Positions 2,936-61,435 of a stretch of 64,000 nt of DNA are shown here, piece by piece; positions within the stretch are counted from its first letter, which is position 1, and each line of letters begins with the position of its first letter. A model generated the notes under the pieces. It was not told where the DNA came from, made no database searches, and saw nothing but the letters and a program-made list of their open reading frames with translations. A program made the translations under genes and the position numbers. The stretch is taken from NCBI RefSeq assembly GCF_964213995.1, contig NW_027590147.1, positions 930,001 to 994,000 on the forward strand, read 5' to 3'. Source of the DNA: Mustelus asterias (lineage: Eukaryota).

Positions 2936-3403
2936 TCTTCACATGCACCTACTACCCTGGTCCAGCTAAATGGTGGAGGTTGAGAGATTAGGAGATTCTC
3001 TCAGAGTTCTGGTCAGGATGTAGATGTAGAGAAACCCTCTCCTTCACTCTCTGATTCTTCCACCTCTCTCTCACCCCTTCGATAGATATTGGTTCATGTG
3101 TCAGTCCAGACCAGGCGGCAGGTTTCCTTCCCTGAAGCACATTAGTGAATCAGTTGGGTTTTTATGACGATCCAGCAGCTTTCATGGTCACTTTTTCTTA
3201 ATGCCGGCCCCACAAATTCATTCAGCTCAATTTCACAACCTGTTTTTGCGTGTTCTCTCTCACTCCCTTTTTTTCTGTTTTAAATCAATTTCATCGTGTC
3301 TTAGAAGATTAGGATTTGCAGTTGGGAAACTGAAACCAAACTCCACATCAGGATCTCAGAGTCGCCTCATTTTTTGTGACCGGAATATCATCGGATTTTG
3401 AAC

Positions 3404-4273
3404 ATGGAAGGAAAAAGCACTGTTCACAGTGGGGAGAAACCGTACTCGTGTTCCGTTTGTGGACAAGACTTCAACCAGTCATCTGGCCTGTTCAAACATA
3501 AATGCAGTCATGATGGGGAGAAGCCGTGGAAATGTGGGGTCTGTGGGAAGGGATTCAATTACCCATCCCAGCTGGAAACCCATCGGCGTGGTCACACCGG
3601 GGAGAGGCCGTTCACCTGCTCGGACTGCGGGAAGGGATTCACTAAGTTATCCACCCTGCAGAATCACCAGCGCACACACACTGGGCAGAGGCCATTCACC
3701 TGCTCTTTGTGTGGGAAGGGATTCACTCAGTCATCCACCCTGATTAAACACAAACTAATTCACACTGGGGAGAGACCATTCACCTGCTCTGTGTGTGGGA
3801 TGGGATTCACTCAGTCATCCACGCTGCTGACACACCAGCGAGTTCACACCGGGGAGAAGCGATTCACCTGCTCTGAGTGTGGAAAGGGATTCACTCACAA
3901 ATCCACCCTGCTGACACACCAGCAAGTTCACACGAGGCAGAGACCATTCACCTGCTCCCAGTGTGGGAAGGGATTTGTTAATTCATCCATCCTAATTACA
4001 CACCAAAGAGGCCACACTGATGAGAGACCGTTTAAGTGTCTGAAGTGTGGGAAATGTTTTAAAACCTCGCAGGAACTGGTGTCCCATCAACAAGTTCACA
4101 CTGACGAGAAACCATTCAGATGCTCTCACTGTGGGACTGGGTTCAGGCGATCATCTCATCTCACTGTACATCAGCGGGTTCACACCGGGGAGAGACCATT
4201 CACCTGCGCCAAGTGTGGGAAGAGATTCACTCAGTCATCCGCATTGCTGAGACACCAGCAAGTTCATAAATAA
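3404..4273 (+). CDS. C2H2 zinc-finger protein, 10 fingers (MEGKS subfamily)
   Basis: Uninterrupted ORF from ATG 3404 with 10 CX2C-X12-HX3H repeats and TGERPF linkers; AATAAA at about 4327. Confidence 0.9.
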
Positions 4274-7650: not shown

Positions 7651-7804
7651 GAGTGTGTTCCAGTGCAGAGTGTGGAAAGAGCTTTAACCAGTTACACAGC
7701 CTGAAAATACATCGCAGCATTCACAGCGGGGAGAGACTGTACCCGTGTTCTGTGTGCGATTTAACTGATTGTTTAACCTGCAGAGTCACAAGGTCACCCG
7801 CACC

Positions 7805-8665
7805 ATGGAAAAACCGTGCAAATGTGGGGACTGTGGAAAGGGATTCAGATCCCCATCTGAGCTGGAAACTCATCGACGCATTCACACTGGGGAGAAACCG
7901 TTTAGCTGCTCTGTGTGTGGGAAGGGATTCACTCGGTTAACCACCCTGCAGATGCACCAGCGAGTTCACACCGGGGAGAGGCCGTTCACCTGCTCTGTGT
8001 GTGGGAAGGGATTCACTCGGTTATCCACTCTGCGGACACACCAGCGAGTTCACACTGGAGAGAGGCCATTTGCCTGCTCTCAGTGTGGGAAGGGATTCAC
8101 TCAATCATCCCACCTGCTGACACACAAAGTCACTCATACCCAGGAGAGACCCTTTAAATGCTCTGACTGTGGGAGTGGCTTCAAAACCTCTCAGAAACTG
8201 GTGTCCCACCAGCGCATTCACACTGAGGACAAACCATTCAGCTGCTCTCACTGCACAAAGAGGTTTAGATTGTCAGCCAAACTGCAGAGACACCAGCGAG
8301 TTCACACTGGGGAGAGGCCGTTTACCTGTACTGTATGTGGGAAGGGATTCGCTCATTTATCCACCCTGCTGACACACAAAGTCACTCACACCAATGAGAG
8401 ACGCTTTAAGTGCTCCGACTGCGGGAATGGATTTAAAAGATCTCAGGATCTGATGATCCACCAGCGCTTTCACACTGAGGAGAGACCGTTCAGCTGCTCT
8501 CTCTGCTCAAAGAGGTTTAGAACGTCATCCCACCTGCAGAGACACCAGCGAGTTCACACTGGGGAGAGACCATTCGCCTGCTCTGAGTGTGGGAAAGGAT
8601 TCACTCTGTCATCAAACCTGCTGAGACACAAAGTGACTCACACCAAGGCGAGACCCTTTAAATGA
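7805..8665 (+). CDS. C2H2 zinc-finger protein, 10 intact fingers, truncated by a premature TGA
   Basis: CACCATGG start (MEKPCKC); 10 fingers; the TGA replaces the first Cys codon of finger 11. Confidence 0.8.
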
Positions 8666-9699: not shown

Positions 9700-10925
9700 A
9701 ATAGAACATAGAACAGTACAGCAAAGGAACAGATGTTTTGGCCCACGATGTTGTGTTGAACATGATGCCAAATTAAATTAATCGTTTCTGCCTGCCCTTG
9801 GTCCATATTCCTCTATTCCTTATGTATTCATGTGCTTATTTAAAAGCCCCTTAAATGCCCCTATCGTATCTGCCTCCACCACCAACCCTGGCAGTGCGTT
9901 CCAGCCACCTACCACTCTCTGTGTAAAAAAACTTATCTCTCACATCTCCTTTGAACTTTCCCTCTCTCACCATCAGTGCGTGTCCCCTGGTATTGGACAT
10001 ACCAACTCTGGGAAAAAGATTCTAACTGTCAGCCCTATCAATGTCTCTCATAATTTTATAGATTTCTATCAGGTCTCCCCTCACCCTCTGCTGCTCCAGA
10101 GAAAACAACCCTCGTTTGTCATAACTTATATCATCTAATCCAGGCAGCATCCTGGAAAACCTCCTCTGTACCTTCTTCAAAGCCTCGGCATCCTTTCTGT
10201 AAGAGGGCAACCGGAATTGAATGCAATATTTTAAATGAGGCCGAACCGATGTTTTATAAAGCTGCAACATATCATCCTGACTCTTGTACTCAATAAAGGC
10301 AAGCATACCATATGCCTTCTTTACAACCTTGTCTACTTGTGTCCAAATTCAGGGAGCTATGGACTTGAACCCCAAGATCCGTCTGTACTTCAATGCTGTT
10401 CACGGATCTGCCATTAACTGTATACTTACCCTTAACATTTAATATCCCAACGTGCAGCACCTCACACTTGCCCGGATTAAACTTCATCTGCCATTTCTTC
10501 GCCCATATCTGTAGCTGATCTATATCCTGCTGTATCTTTTGACAACCTTTTACACTATCTACAACTCCGCCTAGCTTTGTGTCATCTGCAAACTTACTAA
10601 CCCACCCATCCACGTTTTCATCCAGGCTTTTATATATATCACGAACAACAGAGATCCCAGTACGGATCCCTGCAGAACACCACTCGTCACGGACCTTCAG
10701 CCAGAAAAACACCCTCCACCACTACTCTCTGACTTCTATGGGTAAGTCAATTCTGAAACCAAGCGGCCAAGTCACCGTGAATCCCATGCATCTTAATCTT
10801 CTGGATGAGCCGACCATGAGGGACCTTGTCGAAAGCCTTTCTAAAATCCATGTTCACAACATCCACTGCTCTACCCTCATCGACCACCTTCATCACCCCC
10901 TCGATAAAATCGATCAAGTCAGTAA
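9700..10925 (-). mobile_element. 5'-truncated, degenerate CR1 LINE
   Basis: (ATAGAAC)n tail at 9700; RT motifs DFRKAFDKVPH, SKFADDTK and RPHLKYC on the minus strand, with frameshifts. Confidence 0.85.
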
Positions 10926-11065
10926 GATGTTGACGGTGCTCCCACTGCAGTCCTGTGATGAAAATATAGACTGGTTGGTGAAATAGAACATAGAACATAG
11001 AAAGCCACAGCACAAACAGGCCCTTCGGCCCACAAGTTGCGCCGATCACATCCCCACCTCTAGGC

Positions 11066-13978
11066 CTATCTATAGCCCTCAATCCCATTAAATCCCATGT
11101 ACTCATCCAGAAGTCTCTTAAAAGACCCCAAAGAGTTTGCCTCCACCACCACCGACGTCAGCCGATTCCACTCACCCACCACCCTCTGAGTGAAAAACTT
11201 ACCCCTGACATCCCCCCTGTACCTACCCCCCAGCACCTTAAACCTGTGTCCTCTCGTAGCAACCATTTCAGCCCTTGGAAATAGCCTCTGAGAGTCTACC
11301 CTATCCAGACCTCTCAACATCTTGTAAACCTCTATCAGGTCACCTCTCATCCTTCGTCTCTCCAGGGAGAAGAGACCAAGCTCCCTCAACCTATCCTCAT
11401 AAGGCATGCCCCCCAATCCAGGCAACATCCTTGTAAATCTCCTCTGCACCCTTTCAATGGCTTCAACATCTTTCCTGTAATGAGGTGACCAGAACTGCGC
11501 GCAGTACTCCAAGTGGGGTCTAACCAGGGTCCTATAAAGCTGCAGCATTATCTCCCGACTCCTAAACTCAATCCCTCGATTAATGAAGGCTAGTACGCCA
11601 TACGCCTTCTTGACCGCATCCTCCACCTGCGAGGCCGATTTAAGAGTCCTATGGACCCGGACCCCAAGGTCCTTCTGATCCTCTACACTGCTAAGAATGG
11701 TACCCTTCATTTTATACTGCTGCTTCATCCCATTGGATCTGCCAAAATGGATCACTACACACTTATCCGGGTTGAAGTCCATCTGCCACTTCTCCGCCCA
11801 GTCTTGCATTCTATCTATGTCTCGCTGCAACTTCTGACATCCCTCCAAACTATCCACAACACCACCGACCTTGGTGTCGTCAGCAAACTTACCAACCCAT
11901 CCCTCCACTTCCTCATCCAGGTCATTTATGAAAATGACAAACAGCAAGGGTCCCAGAACAGATCCCTGGGGCACTCCACTGGTCACTGACCTCCATGCAG
12001 AGAAAGACCCCTCCACAGCCACTCTCTGCCTTCTGCAGGCAAGCCAGTTCTGGATCCACAAGGCAACAGCCCCTTGGATCCCATGCCCTCTCACTTTCTC
12101 AAGAAGTCTTGCATGGGGGACCTTATCGAACGCTTTGCTGAAGTCCATATAGACCACATCCACCGCTCTTCCTTCGTCAATGTGCTTGGTCACATTTTCA
12201 AAGAACTCAACCAGGCTCGTAAGGCACGACCTGCCCCTGACAAAGCCGTGCTGACTACTTTTGATCATACTAAACTTCTCTAGATGATCATAAATCCTGT
12301 CTCTCAGGATCCTCTCCATCAACTTACCAACCACTGAGGTTAGACTCACCGGTCGGTAATTTCCCGGGCTGTCCCTGTTCCCTTTCTTGAATATAGGGAC
12401 CACATCCGCAATCCTCCAATCCTCCGGAACCTCTCCCGTCTCCATCGACGATGCAAAGATCATCGCCAAAGGCTCCGCAATCTCCTCCCTCGCCTCCCAC
12501 AGTAACCTGGGGTACATCCCATCCGGTCCCGGCGACTTACCAACCTTGATGCCATTCAATAGTTCCAACACATCCTCTTTCTTTATGTCCACATGCTCGA
12601 TCCTTTCTGTCCTCCGCAATCCAGCAGTACAACCACCCAGATCCCTTTCCACCGTGAATACCGAGGTAAAGTATTCATTAAGCACCTCCGCCATTTCTAA
12701 CGGTTCCGCACAAACTTTTCCCCCTTCACCTTTTAAGGGTCCTATGCCTTCACATCTCATCCTTTTACTCTTGACATATTTGTAGAAAGCCTTGGGATTC
12801 TCCTTAATCTTACCCGCCAAGGTCTTCTCATGACCCCTTCTCGCTCTCCTAATTTCCTTCTTAAGCTCCTTCCTACATCGCGTATACTCCTCTAAATCCT
12901 TAACACCTCCTAGCTCTCTGAACCTTCTGTACGCCTCTCTTTTCTTATTTACCAGGTTCATCACAACCTTCGTGCACCACGGTTCCCGTACCCTACCAAC
13001 ACCCCCCTGTCTCATCGGAACGTTGTCATGCAGAGCTCCAGACAAACATTCCTTGAAAATCCTCCACTTTCCTTCGGTACTTTTCCCCAAGAATGCCTCC
13101 TTCCAATTTACCCGTCTAATTTCCTCCCTGATGACACTGTATTTCCCTTTACTCCAGAGAAACACTTTCCTAGCCTGCCTGACCCTATCTCTTTCCAATG
13201 CTATCGTGAAGGAGATAGAATTATGATCGCTATCCCCAAGATGCTCACCCACCGAGAGATCCTCCACCTGTCCAGGTTCATTAGCCAGCACCAGATCAAG
13301 AACAGCCTCTCCTCTAGTAGGCTTATCCACATACTGTGTCAGGAAACTCTCCTGGACACACCTAACAAACTCCTCTCCATCCAAACCCCTAGCCCTAGGG
13401 ATATTCCAATCTATGTTTGGGAAATTAAAATCTCCCATCACGACAACTCTGTTATTCCTACATCTCTCCAGGATCTGTTTCCCCATCTGCTCCTCAACAT
13501 CTCTGTTACTATTGGGCGGCCTATAGAAAACACCCAGCAAAGTTACCGACCCCTTCCTGTTCCTAACCTCCACCCACAGAGATTCCGTAGTCAGTCCCTC
13601 CACGGCGTCCACCTTCTCTACAGCCGTGACACTATCCCTGATCAACAGTGCCACTCCCCCCCCTCTCTTGCCTCCCTCCCTGTCCTTCCTGAAACATCTA
13701 AAACCCGGCACCTGAAGCACCCAGTCCTGTCCCTGAGACATCCAAGTCTCCGTAATGGCCACCACATCACAATTCGAAGCAGCAATCCACGCTCCAAGCT
13801 CATCCACTTTATTCACTACACTCCTGGCATTAAAATAGACACATCTCAGACCTTCAGCCTGAGCACTTCCCTTCTCCCTCACTCGTCTAACCTCCCTCTT
13901 ACCCTGTCTACATTCCTTATCTATTTGCGAGCTAACCTCCTCGCTCTCAGTCCCCTCATTTCGATTCCCTCCCCCCAA
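11066..13978 (-). CDS. CR1 ORF2: APE endonuclease + reverse transcriptase (no ATG start)
   Basis: FNARS, ITETW, YRPP, GDFN and SDH endonuclease motifs; DFSKAFD, GVPQGSVLGP and FADD RT motifs; 970 codons without a stop. Confidence 0.93.
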   Translation of the reverse strand: MGGGNRNEGTESEEVSSQIDKECRQGKREVRRVREKGSAQAEGLRCVYFNARSVVNKVDELGAWIAASNCDVVAITETWMSQGQDWVLQVPGFRCFRKDREGGKRGGGVALLIRDSVTAVEKVDAVEGLTTESLWVEVRNRKGSVTLLGVFYRPPNSNRDVEEQMGKQILERCRNNRVVVMGDFNFPNIDWNIPRARGLDGEEFVRCVQESFLTQYVDKPTRGEAVLDLVLANEPGQVEDLSVGEHLGDSDHNSISFTIALERDRVRQARKVFLWSKGKYSVIREEIRRVNWKEAFLGKSTEGKWRIFKECLSGALHDNVPMRQGGVGRVREPWCTKVVMNLVNKKREAYRRFRELGGVKDLEEYTRCRKELKKEIRRARRGHEKTLAGKIKENPKAFYKYVKSKRMRCEGIGPLKGEGGKVCAEPLEMAEVLNEYFTSVFTVERDLGGCTAGLRRTERIEHVDIKKEDVLELLNGIKVGKSPGPDGMYPRLLWEAREEIAEPLAMIFASSMETGEVPEDWRIADVVPIFKKGNRDSPGNYRPVSLTSVVGKLMERILRDRIYDHLEKFSMIKSSQHGFVRGRSCLTSLVEFFENVTKHIDEGRAVDVVYMDFSKAFDKVPHARLLEKVRGHGIQGAVALWIQNWLACRRQRVAVEGSFSAWRSVTSGVPQGSVLGPLLFVIFINDLDEEVEGWVGKFADDTKVGGVVDSLEGCQKLQRDIDRMQDWAEKWQMDFNPDKCVVIHFGRSNGMKQQYKMKGTILSSVEDQKDLGVRVHRTLKSASQVEDAVKKAYGVLAFINRGIEFRSREIMLQLYRTLVRPHLEYCAQFWSPHYRKDVEAIERVQRRFTRMLPGLGGMPYEDRLRELGLFSLERRRMRGDLIEVYKMLRGLDRVDSQRLFPRAEMVATRGHRFKVLGGRYRGDVRGKFFTQRVVGEWNRLTSVVVEANSLGSFKRLLDEYMGFNGIEGYR

Positions 13979-13983
13979 CCTTT

Positions 13984-14901
13984 CTAGTTTAAAGTCTCAC
14001 CAGTAGCCTTAGCCAACCTTCCCGCCAGGATATTGGTCCCCCTGGGATTCAAGTGCCACCCGTCTTTTTTAAACAGGTCACACCTGCCCCTAAAGAGGTC
14101 CCAATGATCCAAGTACCCAAATCCTTGTCCCTTGCTCCAGTCCCTCAGCCACGCATTAATTCTCCACCGATTCCTGTTCTCACTCTCCCGCGGCACAGGC
14201 AGCAATCCCGAGATTACTACCTTTGCATTCCTCTTTCTCAGCTGTCTACCCAACTCCCTATATTCTCTTTTCATGACCCCTTCCCTCTTCCTACCTATGT
14301 CAGCAGTACCTATATGCATCACGACCTTGGGCTCCTCTCCCTCCCCCTTCAGGATTTCTGGGACTCGACCAGAGACATCCTGGACCCCTGCACCAGGGAG
14401 GCAAACCACCATCCGAGAGTCCCGTCTGTGTCCGCAAAAACGCCTATCTGACCCTCTCACCGTAGAGTCCCCAATTAGCACTACCCTCCTTTCCTTACCC
14501 TTTTGCACTACTGGGCCAGGCTCAGCTCCAGAGACACTGCCACCGCTGCTTCCCCCAGGTGGGCTGTCCACCCCAGTAGTACTCAGACAGGAGTACTTAT
14601 TATTAAGGGGCACATCCACCGGGGTGCTCACCATCACCCGAGCTTTCTCCTTCCTCACTGTTACCCAGTTACCCTCCTCCCGTGGTCCCGGTGTGACCAC
14701 CTGCCGATAGCTCCTGTCAATGACCTGCTCACTATCCCTAACCCGGCGAAGGTCCTCGAGCTGCAATTCCAGTTCCCTAACATGGTCCCTTAGGAACCGC
14801 AGCTCAACACACCCAGCACAGATATGGTCGTCTGGGAGGCTAGGAGCCTCCAGGACCTCCCACATCCTACATTGGGAACAACATACTGGCCTGACAGTCA
14901 T
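13984..14901 (-). CDS. CR1 ORF1: N-terminal Cys zinc finger/leucine zipper + SGNH esterase domain
   Basis: CX2C...CX2C then coiled coil (LRDHVRELELQLEDL); IGDS, PGA, HIGT and DGWH SGNH blocks; ATG at 14901, 305 aa. Confidence 0.9.
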   Translation of the reverse strand: MTVRPVCCSQCRMWEVLEAPSLPDDHICAGCVELRFLRDHVRELELQLEDLRRVRDSEQVIDRSYRQVVTPGPREEGNWVTVRKEKARVMVSTPVDVPLNNKYSCLSTTGVDSPPGGSSGGSVSGAEPGPVVQKGKERRVVLIGDSTVRGSDRRFCGHRRDSRMVVCLPGAGVQDVSGRVPEILKGEGEEPKVVMHIGTADIGRKREGVMKREYRELGRQLRKRNAKVVISGLLPVPRESENRNRWRINAWLRDWSKGQGFGYLDHWDLFRGRCDLFKKDGWHLNPRGTNILAGRLAKATGETLN

Positions 14902-15049
14902 AATTGCCCTTTTAAACACAGGGAAAAAAGTGAATGAAGATTATTCCTCTCTGTTCCAAATTATTTCTACCAAGGTACCCGGAGAAAAGTAACTTATAAA
15001 TAAAATTTTTTAAAAATAAGAAACTCACCCCTGCTTGCCCTTTCTGCCT

Positions 15050-15280
15050 AAGCCCGATGAGCCAAAGCCCCTCAGTTCTCACAAGCCCGATGAGCCAAAG
15101 CCCCTCAGTTCTCACAAGCCCGATGAGCCAAAGCCCCTCAGTTCTCACAAGCCCGATGAGCCAAAGCCCCTCAGTTCTCACAAGCCCGATGAGCCAAAGC
15201 CCCTCAGTTCTCACAAGCCCGATGAGCCAAAGCCCCTCAGTTCTCACAAGCCCGATGAGCCAAAGCCCCTCAGTTCTCAC
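15050..15280 (-). repeat. 7 perfect 33-bp tandem monomers in the CR1 5' UTR
   Basis: (AAGCCCGATGAGCCAAAGCCCCTCAGTTCTCAC)x7 with no spacers. Confidence 0.95.
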
Positions 15281-16114
15281 TCAGCTCCGTCTCACTCCGC
15301 TGCCCGCTCCCAACGCTGCCCGCTAGATAGTGGGACCTGCCTTTTAAACCTCCTGTGCACTAAAAAAAAACTCAAGAGATCCTTCCCAGTCAACCCCGCG
15401 GCCACTGCCGGTTGCGCGCCAAAATTTAAAACTAAATTAAATAAATAAATAACACCCGCGGAAAAGTACTTAAAACTAATTCTTACCCCAAAAATCCTGT
15501 CACCAGTCACAGCTCTGCCTTTCTCCACAGCAAATGTAGATAACAGGTAGAATTGATATCTAATGAGGACTTTATACTTTAGAATTGAATACAGGGCTCA
15601 TTGTTACTAACGGGGAAAGAAGGGTTAAAACCCTTACCCAGAACCCTTTTCACACACACGTGGACATCTCTGAATCTGACGCACACCAAATGGAACGTTA
15701 CACAAGGGACTGGAATTCACTGGAATTTCTTAACAACCTTTCAATAGAAATGTCCTGGTACCGACTGTGACAAAGGACACAACAGACAGCAAGAACCAGG
15801 AGGAACCTTTAACCCAGAGAATGTTAATAACCTTGTTCAGGACACCGGTGCCAGGCACAGGAGGATCCCAGGAAAAACGGAACATTTAATTTCTGTCTGT
15901 TTCACAATTCTAAATGACTGATTCTTTAACAAAGGAATGTTTAAAAACAGCATTGTGATATTCCAAGGTCACTGTGTCTGGGAAAGGGGCACACTGATGT
16001 GTTTTTATTTTAAACAGGAGGATCCATTGAAAAGCAGCTCTGGACGATACGAGCACCTCCTGACCTACTTTCAATTCATTTCAAATCACCCATCACTTTC
16101 CGTGGAATATTCTT

Positions 16115-20009: not shown

Positions 20010-20852
20010 TCACTCGTGAACCTGTTGGTGTCTCAGCAGCTGGGATGAAACTCTGAATCCCTTCCCACACTGAGAGCAGGTGAATGGCCTCTCTCCAGTG
20101 TGAACTCGCTGGTGTGTCTGCAGATTGGATGACTGAGTGAATCCCCTTCCACACTGAGAGCAGGTGAATGGTTTCTCCCCAGTGTGAACTCGCTGGTGTC
20201 TCCGCAGGGTGGATGACAGAGTGAATCGCTTCCCACACTGAGAGCATGTGAACGCTTTCCCCCCAGTGTGAACCCGCTGGTGTATCTGCAGATTGGATGA
20301 CTGACTGAATCCCTTCCCACACTGAGAGCAAGTGAACGGTTTCTCCCCAGTGTGAACTCGCTGGTGTTTCTGCAGGGTGGATGACTGAGTGAATCCCTTC
20401 CCACACTGAGAGCAGGTGAATGGCCTCTCCCCAGTGTGAACTCGCTGGTGTGACCGTAGGCTGGATAAGTCAGTGAATCCCTCCCCACACTGAGAGCAGA
20501 TGAATGGCCTCTCCCCAGTGTGAACTCGCTGGTGTGTCTGCAGCTGGGATAACCGAGTGAATCCCTTCTCACACTGAGAGCAGGTGAATGGTTTCTCCCC
20601 AGTGTGAACCTGCTTGTGTCTCCACAGAGCGGATGCCTGAGTGAATCCCTCCCCACACTTAGAGCAAGTGAACGGCCTCTCCCCAGTGTGAACTCGCTGG
20701 TGTTGCTTCAGGATGGATAACCGAGTGAATCCCTCTCTACAGTGAGAGCAGATGAACGGCCTCTCCCCAGTGTGGCTGCGCCGATGAGCTTCCAGCAGGG
20801 ATGGGGTTCTGTATCTCTTCCCACAGTCCGCACATTTCCATGGTTTCTCCAT
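20010..20852 (-). CDS. C2H2 zinc-finger protein, 10 fingers ([10 protein letters not shown])
   Basis: Intact ORF, CACCATGG start; close paralog of 46378-47280. Confidence 0.9.
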
Positions 20853-21809
20853 GGTGCAGGTGTCCTTGCCTCTCCCTTGGGTGGACAATCAGTTGAAGCC
20901 TCGTTCAAACACAGAACACGAGTACAGTCTCTCCCCGCTGTGAATGGTGTGATATTTATTTAGGCTGTGTAACTGGTTAAAGCTCTTTAGTCAGTGCATT
21001 GGAACACTCTCACTCGAGTGTGGCAGTGTGTTGGTGCTTTTCCAGTCACACTGATGTTTGAAATCTTTTCAAATCGACAGACTGGACAAACGTTTCTCCT
21101 TCTAGATTCAAAGGCCGATGATATTCAGCTCCCAAGGAATATGACTCTGTCAGATCTCGACGTGACATTTGAGATTTCGGAATGCGATTCCTCTTTCAAT
21201 ATCCTGTAAAATGAGTTTATTAAAGCCATCACTGTCAGAACAGGATAGAAATTCAGAAGACACAATTCCAGTTTCTATGGAACATTATTTCCTCCCTCAT
21301 TTCCCAAAAGCTGTAAATCTCCATCCCACACACTCTCCCTCCATTCTCACTCTGCTGTATCTAATATTCACCCTCCCAATTCTCCTGAAGGTGCTGATTG
21401 AGGCTGATTGACAGATCCATGCTCACTGCTTCCTCTCCAGCACATAGAAATCATAAGAAATCGGAGCTGCAGTTGGCCATTCAGCCCATCGAACTGCCTC
21501 AATCATTGATTGAGAATTGGCTGATCGACCTCAGCGTGGGGTGCATAATTCCAAAACTACGCACATACTTGAGTGAGGAAATCCCTCCTCATCTTAACTT
21601 TCTCTCCATTTTCCTACCTGTTCCCCATAACGCTTGACGCCTTTATCAATCAAAAATCAGTTTAACTCACCCTGGAATATATTCAATGACTCTCACCCTC
21701 CACTCATCCCTGTGGAAAAGAAATCCAAACACTAATGACTCTAATAGGCAAGAGACGAATGACTGGAAATATCTAAGGTAGATACAGTACAATATGAGTT
21801 CTGTCTGAA

Positions 21810-22974: not shown

Positions 22975-23820
22975 TTAAAAATGGCCAAGAATGATGAAAA
23001 GAATGATAAGGGAGAAAAAATTTGAGTATGAGAGAAAGCTTGTTCGAAGTATAAAGACCGATAACAAATGGAGCACTGGCCATAGAGCAATAAAGCACAG
23101 AAACAGGTCCTTGGCCCAACTGGTCCATGCCGACCACTGAACCTGTCCCTCAGAATTCTCTCCAGTCATTTATCCAGCACTGATGTCAGGCTCAGCGGCC
23201 TGCAATTACCAGGCTTCTCTTTGCTACTCGTCTTAAACAACGGAACAACATGAGCTTCAATCTTCCAGAACTTTGCCAGTGGAAGAGAAGAAGCAAATAT
23301 CTCTGCAAGGGCCTCTGCAATTTCTTCCCTAGCCCCCCAAAAGATCCAAGAATACACTTGATCAGGCCCAGGGGATTTATCCACCTTAAAGTGCATTCAG
23401 GCTGAAGATATTTCCACCCAAGTAACATGTGTGTGGCCCAATACATAACCTCTTATTTCTTTAGCACCCATGATATTCTCCTCAGTAAACATGGGGAGAA
23501 ATATTCATTAAAAATCTCAGCCATCTCCTGTGGCTCCACACACAGACAGCTATGCTGATTTTTAAGAAGATCTATTCTGTCTGTAGCCACACTTTTATTC
23601 TTAATATAGCTATAGAGCCTCTTGGGATTTTCTTTAACCTTACCTGCCAGATCTATATCATACCCTCTTTCTGCCCTCCTGATTGCTCTCTGAAGTGTTC
23701 TCTTACACTTTTTAATCACATCAAGTGATTCACTTGTCCCTGATTGCCTAAACCCAATGTATGCTTCCTTCTTTTACCTGACCAGAGCCTCAATGTCCCT
23801 TGTCAGCCAGGGATCCCTGG
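22975..23820 (-). mobile_element. Degenerate CR1 ORF2 fragments
   Basis: KVDKSPGPD, PGNCRPLSLTSV and KENPKRLYSYIK motifs. Confidence 0.75.
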
Positions 23821-24067
23821 CTACATGACCTGAGCAAAGATAACAAGCCTGTACTGTGTTGTCAGCCAGCAGGCTGCTGTGGAAGCTTTCTTCATAACAG
23901 AGCAAGAGCGAGCCCTTTCTATATATTTAATTCAAGATTTTATAAGAGATTAGAGGGCAATTTATTTCGTCCATTACTTCAATTGGACTCGTCTCCATTC
24001 CCGGTATTTCTGGACCAGACGGGACCATTTCCCTTTTTTCTGGTGGATAATGGAAGTGTCACTGTGA

Positions 24068-27365: not shown

Positions 27366-28093
27366 TCCAGTGCCTTAAAGGACAAAAATACAGCAGCTAG
27401 AGGGAGAGGTGAAGGGGGAGGGTTTCAGAGTTTGGGGATGAGAGACTGAAGGCATGGTCTCAAATGGTGGAGCAATTAAATAGTGAATGTACAAGAGGCC
27501 AGAATTAGAGCAGCACAGATATCTCAGCGGGTTGCGGGGCTGGAGGATAATATAGAGATAGGGAGGGATGAAGCCCTGGAGAGATTTGAACACAAAGAGG
27601 AAAATTTTAAACTAAAGACATGAGTGGGACAGGAATTTGCAACTTTGGGGATCAAGAGATCAAAGTGTTCCATAGGAACTAGAATTTCCTGTTCTTCCGG
27701 TGACGACTTTGTAAACTCTTTTTGCAGAGAATTAAAACGGGAGGATTTGCAGACGAGAAACTCAAACCAAGTATCATGTAAAGAGCCGACAGAGTCACTC
27801 GATTAATCAGAATTTGAATATCATCAGTCTTCGAATGTGGAAGGAGAAATGTTTGTCTGTTCTGCCTGTGGGAAAAGGTTTGAAATATCAGTGTGAATGG
27901 AAAAGCACCGAGACACACACACACCCGAGTGAGAGTGTTCCAGTGAACTGACTGTGGAAAGAGCTTTAACCAGTTACACAGCCTGAAAAAACATCACACA
28001 GTTCACAGTGAGGAGAAATTGTCCACGTGTTCTGTGTGTTCATGAGGCTTCAACTGATCATCCAACCTGGAGGGACACAAGGACACCAACACC

Positions 28094-28852
28094 ATGGAGA
28101 AACCGTGGAAATGTGGGGAGTGTGGGAAAGGATTCAATTCTCCATCCCTGCTGGAAATTCATCAGCGCAGTCACACTGGGGAGAGGCCGTTCATCTGCTC
28201 AGAGTGTGGGAAAGGATTCACTCAGTCATCCCAATTGCTAACACACCAGCGGTTTCACACTGGAGAGAGACCATTCATCTGCTTGGAGTGTGGAAAGAGA
28301 TTCACTCAGTTATCTGACCTGTCGAGACACCAGCGAGTTCACACTGGGGAGACACAGTTCACCTGCCCTGAGTGTGGAAAAGGATTCATTCAGTCATCCA
28401 ATCTGCTGAAACACCAGCAAGTTCACACTGGGGAGAGACCATTCACCTGCCCTGTATGTGGGAAAGGATTCACTGGGCCCTCTGATTTGCTAAGTCACCA
28501 GCGAATTCACACTGAGGAAAAGCTGTTCAGCTGCACTTCCTGTGGAAAGAGATTCAGGTCTTCAGCCCAGCTCAGTGTACACCAGCGAGTTCACACTGGG
28601 GAGAAGCCATTCATCTGCTCTGAGTGTGGGAATAAATTTTCTCAGTTATCTCACCTGCAGACACACCAGCGAACACACACTGGAGAGAGACCATTCACCT
28701 GCTCTGAGTGTGGGAACAAATTCACTTGTTCATCGCACCTGAGGAGACACCAGCATGTTCACACAAGGGAGAGGCCATTCACCTGCTCCGAGTGTGGGAA
28801 GGGATTCACTCAGTCTGGCAGCCTGCTGCGGCACCAACGAGTTCACAATTAA
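28094..28852 (+). CDS. C2H2 zinc-finger protein, 9 fingers
   Basis: Intact 252-aa ORF, CACCATGG start, [10 protein letters not shown]. Confidence 0.9.
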
Positions 28853-34968: not shown

Positions 34969-35922
34969 TTACTCATGAATTCGCTGGTGGGTCAGCAGGT
35001 CAGATGACTGAGTGAATCCCTTCCCACACTCGGAGCAGATGAACCGCCTCTCGCCAGAGTGAATTCGCTGGTGTCTCAGCAAGTGCGATGAGGTAGTGAA
35101 TCCCTTTCCACACTTGGAGCATGTGAACGGTCTCTCCCCAGTGTGAACAAGCTGATGTGTCAGGAGGTCAGATGATCGAGTGAATCCCTTCCCACATTGG
35201 GAACAGGTAAACGGTTTCTCTTCAGTGTGGCCTCGCTGGTGTGTCAGCAGGTTGGATAACTGAGTGAATCCCTTCCCACAGTCAGAGCAGGTGAACGGCC
35301 TCTCCCCAGTGTGAACTCGCTGGTGTACAATGAGATGAGATGAATGTCTGAACCCAGTCCCACAATGAGAGCACCTGAATGGTTTCTCATCAGTGTGAAC
35401 ACGTTGATGGGACAACAGTTCCCTGGAACTTTTAAAACATTTCCCGCAGTCTGAACAATTAAAAGGTTTCTGGTCAGTGTGAACTTGCTGGTGAGCCAGC
35501 AGATGAGACAAATGAGGGAATTTCTTTCCACATCTGGAGCAGGTAAATGGTTTCTCCCCTGAATGACCTCGCTGGTGTGTCCGTAAGTTGGATGACTGAG
35601 TGAATTTCTTCCCACACTCACAACAGGTGAATGGTCTCTCCCCAGTGTGAACTCGCTGGTGTATCATTAGCTGGGATAAGTGACTGAATCCTTTCCCACA
35701 CTCAGAGCAGCTGATTGGTCTTTCCCCAGTGTGAGCACACTGGTGAGTTTCCAGCTCAGCTGAGGATCTGAATACTGCTGCACATTCCTCACATTTCCAA
35801 GTCATCCCCCCGCTGTGACTGCATTCGTGCTTTGACAGATCAGATGATTGGTTGAAGCCTCGTCCACACACAGAACACGTGTATGGTTTCTCCCCACTGT
35901 GACGAATGCTTTCTCCTTCCAT
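34969..35922 (-). CDS. C2H2 zinc-finger protein, 11 fingers (MEGES, same subfamily as 3404)
   Basis: Intact ORF from ATG 35922. Confidence 0.9.
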
Positions 35923-37369
35923 GTTCAAAGTCCAGTGATATTCAGGCTATGATATTAAGGGTGACTCCGTCAGATCCTGATGTGATGTTTTGTTTGAGAC
36001 CAGACCGCAAATCGTCCCCTTCTAAAACCCTGTGAAATTGATTTAAAACAGAAAAAAGGGAGTGAGAGAGAACCCACAACAACACAAAGGCAGGTTGTCA
36101 AATTGAGCTGAATGAATCTGGTAATTTCTGGGGCCAGCAGGAGGAAATAGTCACCATGAAGCTGCTGGATTGTCATAAAAACCCAGTTGCTTCTCCACGC
36201 GGACATGGAGAGAATGTGCAAATTCCACATAAAGTCAAATAGAAATATTCAGAATGTCACAAAGACGAGTGAACTGTCCAATTAATCCCATTCACCATCA
36301 CTCTGCCAATTTACCTTCTGCAAGTATTTATCCAATTCCCTTTGAAAGTCACTATCAAACCTGCTTCTAGCACCTGTCAGTTTGTGCATTCCAGATCACA
36401 TCAAATCATTGTGTAAAACAATCTCCTTATCATGCCCTAAAGTTAGGCTGTCAATTATGTTAAATCTCTGTGTCCTCTGCTTACAGACCCTCCTGCTCCT
36501 GGGAAACAGTTCCTCTCCATTGACACTATCATAAATCATTTGTCATTTTAAACATCTCTATTAAATCTCCCCATCATATTCCCTGATCTAAAAACCCACG
36601 TTTTTCCTGTCCTGAAGAATCATATGGACTCAAAATGTTAACTGTTTCTCTCTGAACAGATGCTGCAGGACCTGCCGAGGTTTTCTGCTTTTCTCCCTGA
36701 TTTTCCTTCCATAATCAATCAGAAACCCTTCATGATTTTGAACATCTTGATTAAATAGGAACACACAAAACCTGAGAAAGATACAGAGGAAAGGAGAGAC
36801 AGAAAGACTGAGAGAAAAATTGAGAGAGATTTTAAAAAGCAGAAAGATGAGGTTGTCAAAGATAAAAGCTGAGAAACAGGAAACAAGCAACACACAATGA
36901 TATAAAATATAAGGGAGCAGGCTATCAGTTCCCGGCTATGGGGATCAGAGCGAACTCTGACTGATCCACAAACACAGCCAGTTATATCTGGGAATGGAAA
37001 CTCTGAACAGAAATAATAGGCTCATTTGTAAATGTCACCGCAATGTGATCAGTGTGACTCTGCCCTGACTCTGTGGACAGATAAAGGCCGCATTGACAGA
37101 TGTTCTCACCAGATTGTGGTCCCTGGATTTATTTTCTGCTCAGAAGTGAGATGTGAGGTTTGGAACCGGCAGCAGAGAAACAGAAAGTTGTGTTACCTGA
37201 GAATGAAACAGCCGGCGTCAGTTTGATGTTATCACAGTGAACAGTCTTCCTGCCTGTGAGGGTGAACTCACTCTGACAGCATCAAGAACAACCACACAGA
37301 TTGCTACTGGTCTCAGCATTACATTCACCTCCATTCCCATGTTAAACAATAAATATGCATTCTCTCTAC

Positions 37370-40734: not shown

Positions 40735-41474
40735 ACTAAAGAACAAAACAAAGAACAAAGAAAATTACAGCACAGGAACAGACCCTTTGGCCCTCCAAGC
40801 CTGCACCACCTTGCTGCCTGACTGAATTAAAACCCCCTACCCTTCCAAGGACCATATCCCTCTATTCCCATCCTATTCATGTATTTGTCAAGACGCCCCT
40901 TAAAAGTCACTATCGTATCTGCTTCCACTACCTCACCCAGCAGAGAGTTCCAAGCACCCACCACCCTCTGTGTAAAAAAACTTGCCTTGTACATCTCCTT
41001 TAAAACTTGCCCGTCGCACCTTAAACCTGTGCCCCTAATAATTGACTCTTCTACCTTGGGAAAAAGCTTCTGATTATCCACTGTATCCATGCCCCTCATA
41101 ATCTTGTTGACTTGTATCAGGTCTCTGTCGTTCCAGTGAGAATAAGGCAAGTTTCTCCAACCTCTCCTTATAGCTAACCAGGAAACATCCTGGTAAATTT
41201 TTCTGTACCCTCTCCAAAGCCTCCACATCCTTCTGGTAGTGTGGTGATGAGAATTGAACACTATATTCCAAGTGTGGCCTAACTAAGGTTCTACATAGCT
41301 ACAATATTACTTGCCAATTTTTAATCTCAATGCCCCAGCCAATGAAGACAAGCATGCCGTATGCCTTCTTGACTACCTTCTCCACCTGCGTTGCCACTTT
41401 CAGTGACCTGTGTGCCTGTACACCCAGATCCCTCTGCCTATCAATACTCTTCAGGGTTCTGCCATTTACTGTAT
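40735..41474 (-). mobile_element. CR1 3' fragment (same subfamily as 52693-54810)
   Basis: (AAAGAAC)n tail; YTVNGRTLKSIDRQRDLGVQ, PHYQKDVEALERVQ. Confidence 0.85.
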
Positions 41475-41565
41475 AGAAGCATTTGAGTTGATGTAACATT
41501 GAGATTCGCAAAATGTTGAGCAATCATGTAGACTTTGCTCACGTTTAATGAGAAAGATCCAACAG

Positions 41566-46130: not shown

Positions 46131-46377
46131 TGAGCTTCAGATTAAAGCTTCCACTTGGATTTGAAAAGACTTCGGCCATCAGTGAGTGGAAAAGCATCAA
46201 CACACTGCCACACCCGAGTGAGAGTGTTCCAGTGCACTGACTAAAGAGCTTTAACCAGTTACACAGCCTGAATAACTATCACACCATTCACAGCGGGAGA
46301 GACGGTACCCGTGTTCTGTGTGTGGACAAGGCTTCAACTGATTGGCCACCCAAGGGAGAGGCAAGGACACCTGCACC

Positions 46378-47280
46378 ATGGAGAAACCATGGAAATGTGC
46401 GGACTGTGGGAAGAGATACAGAGCCCCCTCTCTGCTGGATGCTCATCGGCGCAGCCACACTGGGGAGCGGCCATTCATCTGCTCTCAGTGTGGGGAGGGA
46501 TTCGCTCTGTTGCCCAGCCTGCAGTCACACAAGCGAGTTCACACCGGAGAGAGACCGTTCACCTGCTCTCAGTGTGGAAAGGGATTCACTGTGTTATCCA
46601 CTTTGCAGAGACACCAGCGAATTCACACTGGGGAGAGGCTGTTTATCTGCTCTCGGTGTGGGAAGGGGTTCAGTCAGTTTTCCAACCTGCAGATACACCA
46701 GCGAGTTCACACTGGGGAGAGGCCATTCATCTGCTCTCGTTGTGGGAAGAGATTCACTCGGTCATCCGACCTGCGGACACATCAGCACATTCACACCGGG
46801 GAGAGGCCATTCACCTGTTCTCAGTGTGGGAAGGGATTTACTCGTTCATCCGACCTGCGGACACACCAGCGAGTTCACACTGGGGAGAGGCCATTCACCT
46901 GCTCTCAGTGTGGGAAGACATTCATTCGGTCATCCGTCCTGCGGAGACACCAGCGAGTTCACACTGGGGAGAGACCATTTACCTGCTCTCAGTGTGGGAA
47001 GGGTTTCAGTCAGTTATCCACCCAGCAGAAACACCAGCAAATTCACACTGGAGAGAGGCCGTTCACCTGCTCTCAGTGTGGGAAGAGATTCACTCGGTCC
47101 TCCCACCTGCAGAGACACCAGCGAGGTCACACTGAGGAGAGGCCATTCGCCTGCTCTCAGTGTGGGAAAGGTTTCAGTCAGTTATCCAACCTGCAGAGAC
47201 ACCAGCGAATTCACATGGGGAGAGACCATTCACCTGCTCTCAGTGTGGGAAGGAATTCACTCAGTTATCCCACCTGTTGA
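46378..47280 (+). CDS. C2H2 zinc-finger protein, 10 fingers, late frameshift
   Basis: CACCATGG start, [10 protein letters not shown]; frameshift after finger 10 (CACATGGGG). Confidence 0.85.
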
Positions 47281-59776: not shown

Positions 59777-60592
59777 AAGCCACTTCTTTTACCTTAAAAG
59801 AGGCCCACATCTGTGAGTAAAACACTTTCTTTTCTCCCCCTTTCCATTTATTTTCTCATTCTGGGGAAAATTGGGGACTTGCAGCAACTGAAGGGAAAGG
59901 AAGTGAATCCAGTCGGTATGTTCCACACATTGTTAGTCCAGTCAGATAGACATTTATCTGTCTGTCCACCTGCATGGAGATTTCCAGCTCCCTGTGTCCA
60001 GGACAGGAAGCCGTGAGCATGGATCTGTCAATCAGCCTCAATCAGCACCTTCAGGAGAATTGGTAGGGTGAATATTAGATACAGCAGAGTGAGAATGGAG
60101 GGAGAGTGTGTGGGATGGAGATTTACAGCTTTTGGGGAATGAGAGAGGAAAGAATGTTCCATAGAAACTGGAATAGTCTGTTCTGAATTTCTATCCTGTG
60201 CTGACATTGATGAATTTTTCAAACTCGTTTCAGGATATGAGGAGGTGAGGATTGACAGACCAAAATCTTGAAACAAACATCACATCAGCATCCGACACCC
60301 TCACTCAATTCATCCGGACCTGAATATTATCGGCCTTTGAATCTAGAAGGAGAAATGTTTCTCTGTTCTGTCTGCATCAACGGGCCTTTAATATCAATGT
60401 GACTGGAAAAGCACCAAGGCACAGATACACCCGAGTGAGAGTGTTCCAGTGAACTGAGTGTGGAAAGAGCTTTAACCAGTTACACAGCCTGAAAATACAT
60501 CGCAGCATTCACAGCAGGGAGAGACTGTACCCACATTCTGTGTGAGATTTAACTGATTGTTTAACCTGGAGAGTCACAAGGACACCCACACC

Positions 60593-61435
60593 ATGGAGAA
60601 ACCGTGGAAATGTGGGGAATGTGGAAAAAGATACAGAGCTCCTTGTAAATTGGAAATTCATCGACGTATTCACACCGGGGAGAGGCCATTCATCTGCTCT
60701 GTGTGTGGGCAGAGATTCACTCGGTTATATCATCTGCAGCGACATCGGCTGGTTCACACTGGAGAAAGAGCGTTCATCTGCTTTGAGTGTGGGAACGGAT
60801 TCGCTCATTTACCCGATCTGCAGAGACACCAGCGCGTTCACACTGGAGAGAGACCATTCACCTGCTTGGTGTGTGGGAAAGGATTTATGCAGTTATCCAA
60901 TCTGTCAAAACACAAAGTCACTCACAGCAATGAGAAACCCTTTAAATGCTCTGACTGTGGGAGTGGTTTCAAAAGCTCTCGGGAACTGATGATTCACCAG
61001 CGCATTCACACTGGGGAGAGACCGTTCAGCTGCTCTCACTGCTCAAAGAGATTTAGAACATCATCCCACCTGCGGATACACCAGCGAATTCACACTGGGG
61101 AGAGACCGTTCACCTGCTCTGTGTGTGGGAAGGGATTCACTCAGTCATCCAGCCTGCTGAACCACAATCTCACTCACACCAATGAGAGACCCTTTAAATG
61201 TTCTGACTGTGGAAGTGGTTTCAAAAGCTCTCGGGAACTGATGATTCACCAGTGCATTCACACTGAGGAGAGGCCGTTCAGCTGCTCTCACTGCACAAAG
61301 AGATTTAGAACATCATCCCACCTGCGGCAACACCAGCGAGTTCACACTGGGGAGAGACCGTTCACTTGCTGTGCGTGTGGGAAGGGATTCACTCAGTCAT
61401 CCAGCCTGCGGACACACCAGCAAGTTCACAAGTGA
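60593..61435 (+). CDS. C2H2 zinc-finger protein, 10 fingers
   Basis: Intact ORF, CACCATGG start; likely splice acceptor TTTCAG at about 60232; AATAAA at about 61702. Confidence 0.9.
   Translation: MEKPWKCGECGKRYRAPCKLEIHRRIHTGERPFICSVCGQRFTRLYHLQRHRLVHTGERAFICFECGNGFAHLPDLQRHQRVHTGERPFTCLVCGKGFMQLSNLSKHKVTHSNEKPFKCSDCGSGFKSSRELMIHQRIHTGERPFSCSHCSKRFRTSSHLRIHQRIHTGERPFTCSVCGKGFTQSSSLLNHNLTHTNERPFKCSDCGSGFKSSRELMIHQCIHTEERPFSCSHCTKRFRTSSHLRQHQRVHTGERPFTCCACGKGFTQSSSLRTHQQVHK

Follow-up and report, generated by a model that had tools for sequence, protein, structure and literature searches.

A conserved slippery heptamer at the ORF1 stop codon of CR1 retrotransposons and its probable role in expressing ORF2 by -1 ribosomal frameshifting

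INTRODUCTION

How does a long interspersed nuclear element (LINE) with two open reading frames (ORFs) translate the second of them? The question is an old one, and frameshifting has been guessed earlier for some elements that lack long terminal repeats (non-LTR elements) and in which the ORFs overlap. It is raised again by a stretch of 64,000 nucleotides (nt) from Mustelus asterias (NCBI RefSeq assembly GCF_964213995.1, contig NW_027590147.1, positions 930,001 to 994,000 of the forward strand), referred to here as ‘the window’, whose own numbering, from 1, is used throughout. On its minus strand, at 14901-10983, lies an intact two-ORF LINE of the CR1 type. ORF1 encodes an esterase, and ORF2 encodes an endonuclease (APE) and a reverse transcriptase (RT) in a frame with no AUG where one would be needed. 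An earlier note on this DNA, made from the letters alone, proposed that the two are joined by programmed -1 frameshifting at a slippery site directly before the ORF1 stop. All of its coordinates and sequence facts were correct when re-derived. The sequence of this junction signal, its phase, its conservation and its covariation are observations and are described first. Judged by these comparisons, the signal is real and deeply conserved, from sharks to crocodilians, and ORF2 is likely to be expressed through it, by -1 programmed ribosomal frameshifting, as part of a predicted fusion protein of 1278 amino acids (aa).

THE JUNCTION IN THE WINDOW

ORF1 begins with the ATG at 14901 and ends GAG ACT TTA AAC TAG, its stop codon occupying 13986-13984. 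The features around this point, in the order in which ribosomes would meet them, are as follows.

13997-13999, minus strand: TGA bounding the -1 (ORF2) frame on its upstream side, two codons before the slip site, from translation
13987-13993, minus strand: slippery heptamer U_UUA_AAC in X_XXY_YYZ phase, the candidate -1 shift site, found in the sequence and, in 18 consensus rows, where ORF1 ends
13984-13986, minus strand: stop codon of ORF1, adjoining the heptamer on its 3' side, conserved in position and variable in identity
13835-13986, minus strand: linker from slip site to endonuclease in the ORF2 frame, about 50 codons, purine-rich, free of stops and of AUG, from translation
13967-13976, minus strand: G-rich motif GGGGG-NN-GGG, candidate 3' stimulator, starting 10 nt past the heptamer, in the same register in the window and seven consensus rows
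13927-13955, minus strand: GGGG followed by a GCGAG/CUCGC hairpin (arms 13944-13940 and 13931-13927), probably incidental

The ORF2 frame, which is -1 relative to ORF1, stays open between 13996 and 11066; no Met occurs in it before residue 86 (13741), beyond the NARS (residue 56) and ITETW (residue 83) motifs. Because no AUG precedes the essential APE motifs in the -1 frame, and this frame begins a mere two codons ahead of the heptamer, the segment in which a shift could take place is essentially the heptamer itself. The length of the fusion and the junction peptide predicted in the earlier note were both reproduced from the sequence. At the ORF1 stop, where the element SART1 has UAAUG, the window has UAGAA instead.

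What is noteworthy about the heptamer is its position and not its occurrence, since TTTAAAC is common in the window (23 matches on the two strands; TTTAAAC-TRR is found three times, against 0.70 expected). The terminal heptamer is the sole canonical slippery heptamer in frame among the 305 codons of ORF1, and it occupies the last two of these; the 976 codons of ORF2 contain four. From base composition, a canonical heptamer of any kind would be expected at a single specified site with a probability of about 0.0015. The two codons that make up the heptamer are TTA, the rarest Leu codon of the element (5/104), and AAC, the rarer of its Asn codons (13/43).

CONSERVATION OF THE HEPTAMER IN DNA CONSENSUSES

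For comparison at the DNA level we used the first 400 nt of each consensus in Supplementary Table 2 of PMC13343379. The rows are degenerate and were assigned by eye, the species names were expanded from the row prefixes, and the counts below refer to those portions of the table that were available. TTTAAAC followed by a stop codon matched 23 times, 18 of them at the end of ORF1, in 12 vertebrate species: alligator (two rows), crocodile (three), bearded dragon, bullfrog, coelacanth, bowfin, halosaur (a row labelled Crack), elephant shark, stingray, sawfish, catshark (two) and dogfish (three). Cartilaginous fishes, bowfin, a teleost, coelacanth, frog, lizard and crocodilians are thus represented. 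No bird or turtle row is among these DNA matches; the evidence for birds is a stork protein model, and no turtle is named. The stop codon after the heptamer is TAG in 11 rows, TAA in six and TGA in one. The check set out in the earlier note, that heptamer and phase recur across CR1 families, thus came out as predicted, from sharks to crocodilians.

The remaining five matches comprise three in rows labelled L2 or Rex1 and two in 5' untranslated regions (UTRs) of dogfish CR1s. The latter (SquAca_CR1-3 and SquAca_CR1-18) could mark an upstream ORF or be due to chance. Two of the 58 parts of the table were covered in full and hold 36 CR1 rows; the junction is visible in five of these and the motif is present in all five, once in partial (truncated) form and once without a stop. 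When the esterase motif further upstream served as the anchor of a search, with anchors derived from positive rows, the heptamer was found at eight of eight visible junctions. Six control strings gave eight matches, none at the end of ORF1.

This bears on one rival explanation, that Leu-Asn-stop is kept as a C-terminal motif of the ORF1 protein (ORF1p), that Gly-x-Gly is likewise a peptide feature, and that the heptamer is a by-product of coding. The terminal Asn is indeed among the nearly invariant columns of a 46-row protein alignment. Against this, the 18 DNA rows use T-TTA-AAC in spite of the rarity of TTA, and the control strings, of which there were only six, never fall at the end of ORF1. 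The proteins themselves provide two further arguments.

ORF1 C-TERMINI IN HOMOLOGOUS PROTEINS

Two overlapping searches, one giving 33 proteins and the other the best 150 of 1534, yielded 180 homologues of ORF1. The catalytic His allowed 125 of these to be aligned; after removal of 11 whose ends lay over 40 or under 15 residues beyond it, 114 were left. Asn is the last residue in 87 of the 114, preceded by Leu in 71, Gly in eight, Ser in three, Glu in two, Lys in one and other residues in two. T_TTA_AAC needs the codon before Leu to end in T (NNT), and the residue in this position permits such a codon in 70 of the 71. Before Gly-Asn the residue is Gln in seven of the eight, compatible with CAG GGA AAC, and hence with the heptamer G_GGA_AAC. 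Strict fit to a heptamer is found in 79 of the 114 termini, compared with 374 of 6498 internal tripeptides (5.8%). Fisher P values (1e-7 to 7e-4) were discounted for relatedness, given the esterase tree described below. After de-replication at 60% identity, residues with pyrimidine-ending codons precede Leu-Asn in 11 of 29 proteins, versus 14% at neighbouring positions (P 0.001), and M, W, K, E or Q do so in one of 29, versus 21% (P 0.01); the latter test is only a modest one, because some neighbouring positions are equally low.

It is the third base of the codon, then, and not the chemistry of the side chain, that limits the residue preceding Leu. In addition, three proteins (P0104, P0156 and P0163) keep a compatible tripeptide in place while the stop lies 10-11 codons further on. 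The idea of a conserved protein terminus is largely refuted by these facts, and we give it very little credence.

A tree was built from 65 esterase cores with the C-terminal tail left out. The window sits in a clade of 27 rows, 20 of which end in Leu-Asn. All eight Gly-Asn, Glu-Asn and Lys-Asn ends fall within a single clade of 14 rows, with two label changes, including a sister pair in which one member ends QGN and the other FLN. The termini of this one clade, in other words, switch to fit G_GGA_AAC or A_AAA_AAC. Both of these, like U_UUA_AAC, are listed among the shiftiest heptamers in the portions available of a review of recoding (PMC5009743). In a clade resembling zebrafish ZfL2-1, none of five rows has a heptamer-compatible terminus; the esterase fold therefore does not need one.

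Four proteins (P0030, P0066, P0188 and P0210) cross into the ORF2 frame and have Phe-Lys-Leu at the junction, as TTT AAA CTN predicts. Two of them are NCBI models, from stingray and stork. A search for longer, fused ORF1 proteins found no full fusion, only two gene models that are chimeric; as evidence for or against a fusion this is weak. Among 120 homologues of ORF2 the predicted starts scatter from about 10 to more than 120 residues before the glutamate of ITETW; this counts for little, since where a start is predicted depends on the gene finder used.

Further observations concern individual proteins. The Ser-Asn and Glu-Asn ends of P0033, P0122, P0137, P0135 and P0140 would fit relaxed sites such as U_UCA_AAC and G_GAA_AAC. 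P0017 and P0185 are CR1 proteins of the shark type that carry bacterial names (Pseudomonas and Carnobacterium) and come from short contigs; contamination most likely accounts for the labels. ORF1 had no match in plasmid and phage sequence collections, and a scan of genome contigs, directed at vertebrate DNA present as contamination, found only three bacterial hydrolase-like loci, at 24-26% identity.

THE G-RICH MOTIF DOWNSTREAM

Six nt after the heptamer come GG (13980), G6 (13976-13971), A, GGG, 11 further nt and GGGG (13955-13952). The earlier note took this tract, possibly as a quadruplex, for the stimulator of the shift. What recurs is the core, G5-NN-G3. Nine CR1-labelled rows of the consensus table contain one of three G-rich strings, which were themselves taken from positive rows, and in eight of the nine the string stands directly behind heptamer and stop. 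In seven of these eight the motif begins exactly 10 nt after the heptamer, as it does in the window. A composite pattern drawn from the same sequences matched the window once, against 0.07 expected, when three mismatches were allowed. The motif sets wobble positions in the ORF2 frame (NNG GGG GNN GGG) and for this reason looks like an RNA signal, although GGG supplies 37 of the 122 Gly codons of the element.

Its form is less clear. The tract has a G4Hunter score of 2.0, the third-best site in the element (which is 36% G), with two other sites scoring higher, and the minimum-free-energy structure from ViennaRNA contains a two-tier G-quadruplex at 13980-13964. Only the G5 and G3 runs are conserved across rows, and the quadruplex is therefore one option among several. 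The motif could act as a linear motif bound by a protein, and with the same modest probability it could act in another way or have no role at all; action as a weak two-tier quadruplex is slightly less probable than either. In the form given in the earlier note the stimulator is not supported; what stands is a recurrent motif at a fixed spacing, with the quadruplex as a possibility. Natural use of quadruplexes in frameshifting was not then known, according to the portions available of the 2016 review (PMC5009743).

The GCGAG/CUCGC hairpin, to which the note had also drawn attention, was rejected as a stimulator. It starts 43 nt downstream, has a predicted energy of -7.2 kcal/mol (z -1.5), and was not seen by eye in other rows.

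HOW ORF2 MAY BE EXPRESSED

The junction combines several of the features by which canonical -1 sites are recognized: a heptamer in phase, a downstream ORF in the -1 frame without a usable start of its own, and conservation of the shift site at the nucleotide level. On this basis, expression of ORF2 could proceed as follows. Most ribosomes would translate ORF1 and terminate at the UAG. A minority would slip back one base on U_UUA_AAC, the Leu tRNA moving from UUA to UUU and the Asn tRNA from AAC to AAA. The former stop would then be read as CUA, and translation would continue into an esterase-linker-APE-RT fusion. As with gag-pol, such a fusion would set a high ratio of ORF1p to ORF2p. Pausing would probably be caused jointly by the neighbouring stop codon and the G-rich motif with its constant distance; when the stop occupies the A site, the motif should lie 7 nt ahead, near the mRNA entry channel.

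Several facts weigh against frameshifting as the route to ORF2. The DNA evidence was gathered by eye from degenerate consensus rows trimmed to 400 nt, and several of the search strings came from positives. The covariation of the heptamer is real and comprises few independent events, because the Gly-Asn, Glu-Asn and Lys-Asn ends occupy one clade with two label changes, and 35 of the 114 termini have no strict heptamer fit. Several of the 18 rows, among them that from halosaur and two from dogfish, lack the G-rich motif or have it out of place. No stem-loop or pseudoknot was found 5-9 nt downstream (87-134 nt after the site were folded, z -1.2 to +0.9 versus shuffles, with no dedicated pseudoknot predictor run), the junction region has no match in Rfam, and the best long-range partner for the G-tract within the element (-20.7 kcal/mol) was bettered in three of 20 shuffles. 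The bicistronic LINEs tested so far, SART1 and L1, re-initiate (PMC2881922 and PMC5972666, each available in part). Finally, UAAUG is present in three of the 18 rows (three of the six with TAA, two of the three being related dogfish rows), with its AUG in the ORF2 frame, and in the stingray gene model P0186 the initial Met falls at the junction, around residue 6-7 of that frame.

The last three facts point to the alternative that survives best, in which ribosomes terminate and re-initiate just past the ORF1 stop, at AUG or at another codon, as the sole route to ORF2; the G-rich motif would retain the 40S subunit, and the heptamer would be incidental. UAAUG yields the identical -1 frame relation, SART1 requires a downstream RNA element, and calicivirus re-initiation tolerates changes to the start codon (PMC5972666 and PMC3708506, in the parts available). 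However, UAAUG is missing from the window and from 15 of the 18 rows. Initiation at the UUG present in the window, which the earlier note had named as a possible refutation, was rejected in view of variation among families, in which the corresponding codon specifies Leu, Gln, Pro, Lys or Arg and only the final G is kept. Re-initiation also leaves unexplained why T-TTA-AAC is retained, and why it is exchanged for other shifty heptamers. We consider it improbable as the sole route; in families with an AUG at the junction it may run in parallel with frameshifting.

Splicing would place ORF2 behind an upstream AUG, with CUAG/G at the end of ORF1 as the acceptor. Donor-like sites do occur in the element, including GGG/GTGAGT at 15028, and TAG/G is acceptor-like. 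We find splicing highly unlikely, because seven of the 18 rows have TAA or TGA and not TAG, and because the linker has no pyrimidine tract: every AG from 14042 to 13845 is preceded by sequence with at most 50% pyrimidines. The absence of a pyrimidine-rich acceptor there also answers the question the earlier note had raised about a spliced source of ORF2.

Slippage of the polymerase on runs of T, A or G, adding a base to some transcripts, would create the same fusion with no ribosomal shift. The gene model P0188, in which ORF1 continues directly in the ORF2 frame from a Gly-Gly that precedes Phe-Lys-Leu, would fit this, but is a genomic copy or an artefact of the model. Polymerase slippage too has a very small chance of being correct, as the runs are only 3 nt long (bacterial slippage is cited with runs of nine in the accessible parts of PMC5009743) and the conserved codon phase matters to ribosomes, not to polymerases.

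We return, then, to -1 frameshifting as the probable route. Of the original proposal, heptamer, phase and neighbouring stop are all conserved across consensus rows, and C-termini covary with alternative heptamers, as frameshifting would predict; the UAAUG in three of 18 rows does not sit easily with it. A bolder form of the proposal would be that esterase-type CR1s across jawed vertebrates, and related elements, all frameshift at a stop-adjacent heptamer, and that a protein acting on the motif 10 nt downstream, either a G-run binder of the host or ORF1p in feedback, drives the shift in place of an RNA fold. We put this forward tentatively, as being rather less probable than not.

THE ELEMENT AND ITS SETTING

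The element itself is an ordinary CR1, of the esterase type and of the ray and shark kind. CR1 elements end in a short microsatellite instead of poly(A), and this one has such an end, together with APE and RT domains in ORF2 and an SGNH esterase in ORF1. In the esterase tree it is separate from the ZfL2-1-like rows, and by eye its DNA resembles rows labelled CR1. Its parts are as follows.

14902-15420, minus strand: 5' UTR, with approximate 5' end; from the sequence, with a likeness by eye to the corresponding region in sawfish and stingray CR1 consensus rows
15050-15280, minus strand: seven identical tandem repeats of 33 bp in the 5' UTR (Tandem Repeats Finder: 7.0 copies, 100% match)
13984-14901, minus strand: ORF1, 305 aa, with a Cys-rich and coiled-coil-like N-terminal part and an SGNH esterase, ending ETLN-stop (Pfam, PDB)
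11066-13996, minus strand: ORF2 frame, 976 codons, with APE endonuclease at about 13834-13223 and reverse transcriptase at about 12388-11717
10983-11065, minus strand: 3' UTR, short, with a (GTTCTAT)n microsatellite as its tail at 11002-10983

The esterase of ORF1 matches Pfam Lipase_GDSL_2 (PF13472, E 5e-13) and the ORF1 esterase structure PDB 4C1B (E 5e-23), and the closest named relatives of ORF1 are from rays and skates, at 64-73% identity. ORF2 matches Exo_endo_phos (PF03372, E 2e-22) and RVT_1 (PF00078, E 1e-33). Two residues of ORF1 stand out: at about position 200, Ala takes the place of the SGNH Asn typical of most homologues, and at about position 282, Trp replaces the Leu preceding the catalytic His. 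With these substitutions, esterase activity in the subfamily to which the window belongs may be altered.

Several features of the 5' UTR deserve mention. The seven perfect 33-bp repeats resemble promoter monomers, and their identity suggests either a young insertion or a recent expansion. A TATA-like TTTAAAAG lies at about 15347-15340 on the minus strand, some 20 nt upstream of a CAGCGGGCAGCG-type motif that also occurs in stingray and sawfish CR1 rows; together these are a possible internal promoter. The strong donor-like GGG/GTGAGT at 15028 is followed, just upstream of the ORF1 ATG, by a run of pyrimidines that finishes in AG (at about 14940-14910 on the minus strand); the pairing suggests an intron of about 120 nt, although an intron retained in a LINE would be odd. 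Comparable pairs occur upstream of the ATG in several catshark CR1 consensus rows, in the portions of the table available.

A search around the element gave no convincing target-site duplication. An older CR1 fragment at 10935-9829 adjoins its 3' end, one of many older, broken, 5'-truncated CR1 ORF2 fragments in the window (e.g. 9829-10935, 23082-23821, 40854-41487 and 52675-54705). The remaining CR1 pieces are 5'-truncated, and the window holds no second copy of ORF1 or of the junction. The setting is a cluster of C2H2 zinc-finger genes, with at least seven zinc-finger array exons (3380-4273, 7769-8665, 20010-20888, 28058-28852, 34969-35946, 56602-58164 and 60557-61435). Elsewhere, at 46241-47332, open frames of 287-363 codons overlap in all three plus-strand frames; the single frame scanned had no Pfam match, and the region is probably a repeat.

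IMPLICATIONS

In most vertebrates the dominant retrotransposons belong to the CR1 group (PMC13343379, as available). If they frameshift, the active enzyme would be an esterase-APE-RT fusion, physically tied to the ORF1 particle; annotations that start ORF2 at an internal Met would truncate the endonuclease; and functional assays of CR1 would have to retain the junction. If the protein-driven form of the proposal were also true, a conserved and regulated recoding switch would be operating in the dominant retrotransposon of most vertebrates. The junction cassette of about 30 nt makes the question of LINE ORF2 translation directly testable, and it offers a candidate for a natural G-rich stimulator.

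We found no proposal of frameshifting for CR1 in the open literature, a search that lay outside the 1997 chicken and turtle CR1 papers and the Repbase and Dfam notes. The CR1 papers covered by the search do not take up how ORF2 is expressed: the word ‘frameshift’ does not occur in the available main text of two of them (PMC13343379 and PMC4316615), and CR1 is never mentioned in the available portions of the recoding review PMC5009743. An earlier remark on the subject may exist, though we doubt it. Frameshifting is a known recoding mechanism, placed here in a class of elements where it is not established.

COMPARISON WITH KNOWN SYSTEMS

Vertebrate CR1s from elasmobranchs, turtles, birds and crocodilians have the same structure as the element described here: an esterase ORF1, an APE-RT ORF2 and a microsatellite 3' tail. 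The ORF1p of zebrafish ZfL2-1, the source of PDB 4C1B, is a homologous SGNH esterase whose clade, unlike CR1, lacks the heptamer-compatible terminus.

SART1, with its UAAUG coupling, and mammalian L1, with re-initiation, share with CR1 a bicistronic non-LTR RNA and the dependence of ORF2 on translation of ORF1, and the UAAUG of three of the 18 CR1 rows is a further likeness to SART1. They differ in making separate proteins, and a slippery heptamer is not mentioned in the available parts of the papers that describe them (PMC2881922, PMC5972666 and PMC3708506); the window, for its part, has no AUG at the junction. The review PMC5009743, in its available portions, holds that mammalian LINE ORF2 is probably translated by a novel form of initiation, and that the gag of HeT-A needs a frameshift.

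With the -1 signals of coronaviruses and retroviruses the CR1 junction has in common the same heptamer, in phase, a polymerase in the -1 frame and a fusion product, predicted in the case of CR1. It differs in having no stem-loop or pseudoknot 5-9 nt downstream, and in having a directly adjacent stop and a short G-rich motif at 10 nt. In this respect it recalls the arterivirus PRRSV (the agent of porcine reproductive and respiratory syndrome), in which a complex of nsp1beta and PCBP acts on CCCANCUCC. The arterivirus motif is C-rich, whereas that of CR1 is G-rich, with a binder that is only hypothetical, and the resemblance is a lead only. What the two share is a low-complexity motif, short and linear, whose spacing is constant: 11 nt after the shift site in the arterivirus (PMC5009743, as available) and 10 nt in CR1, both in the window and in seven of the eight heptamer-linked rows.

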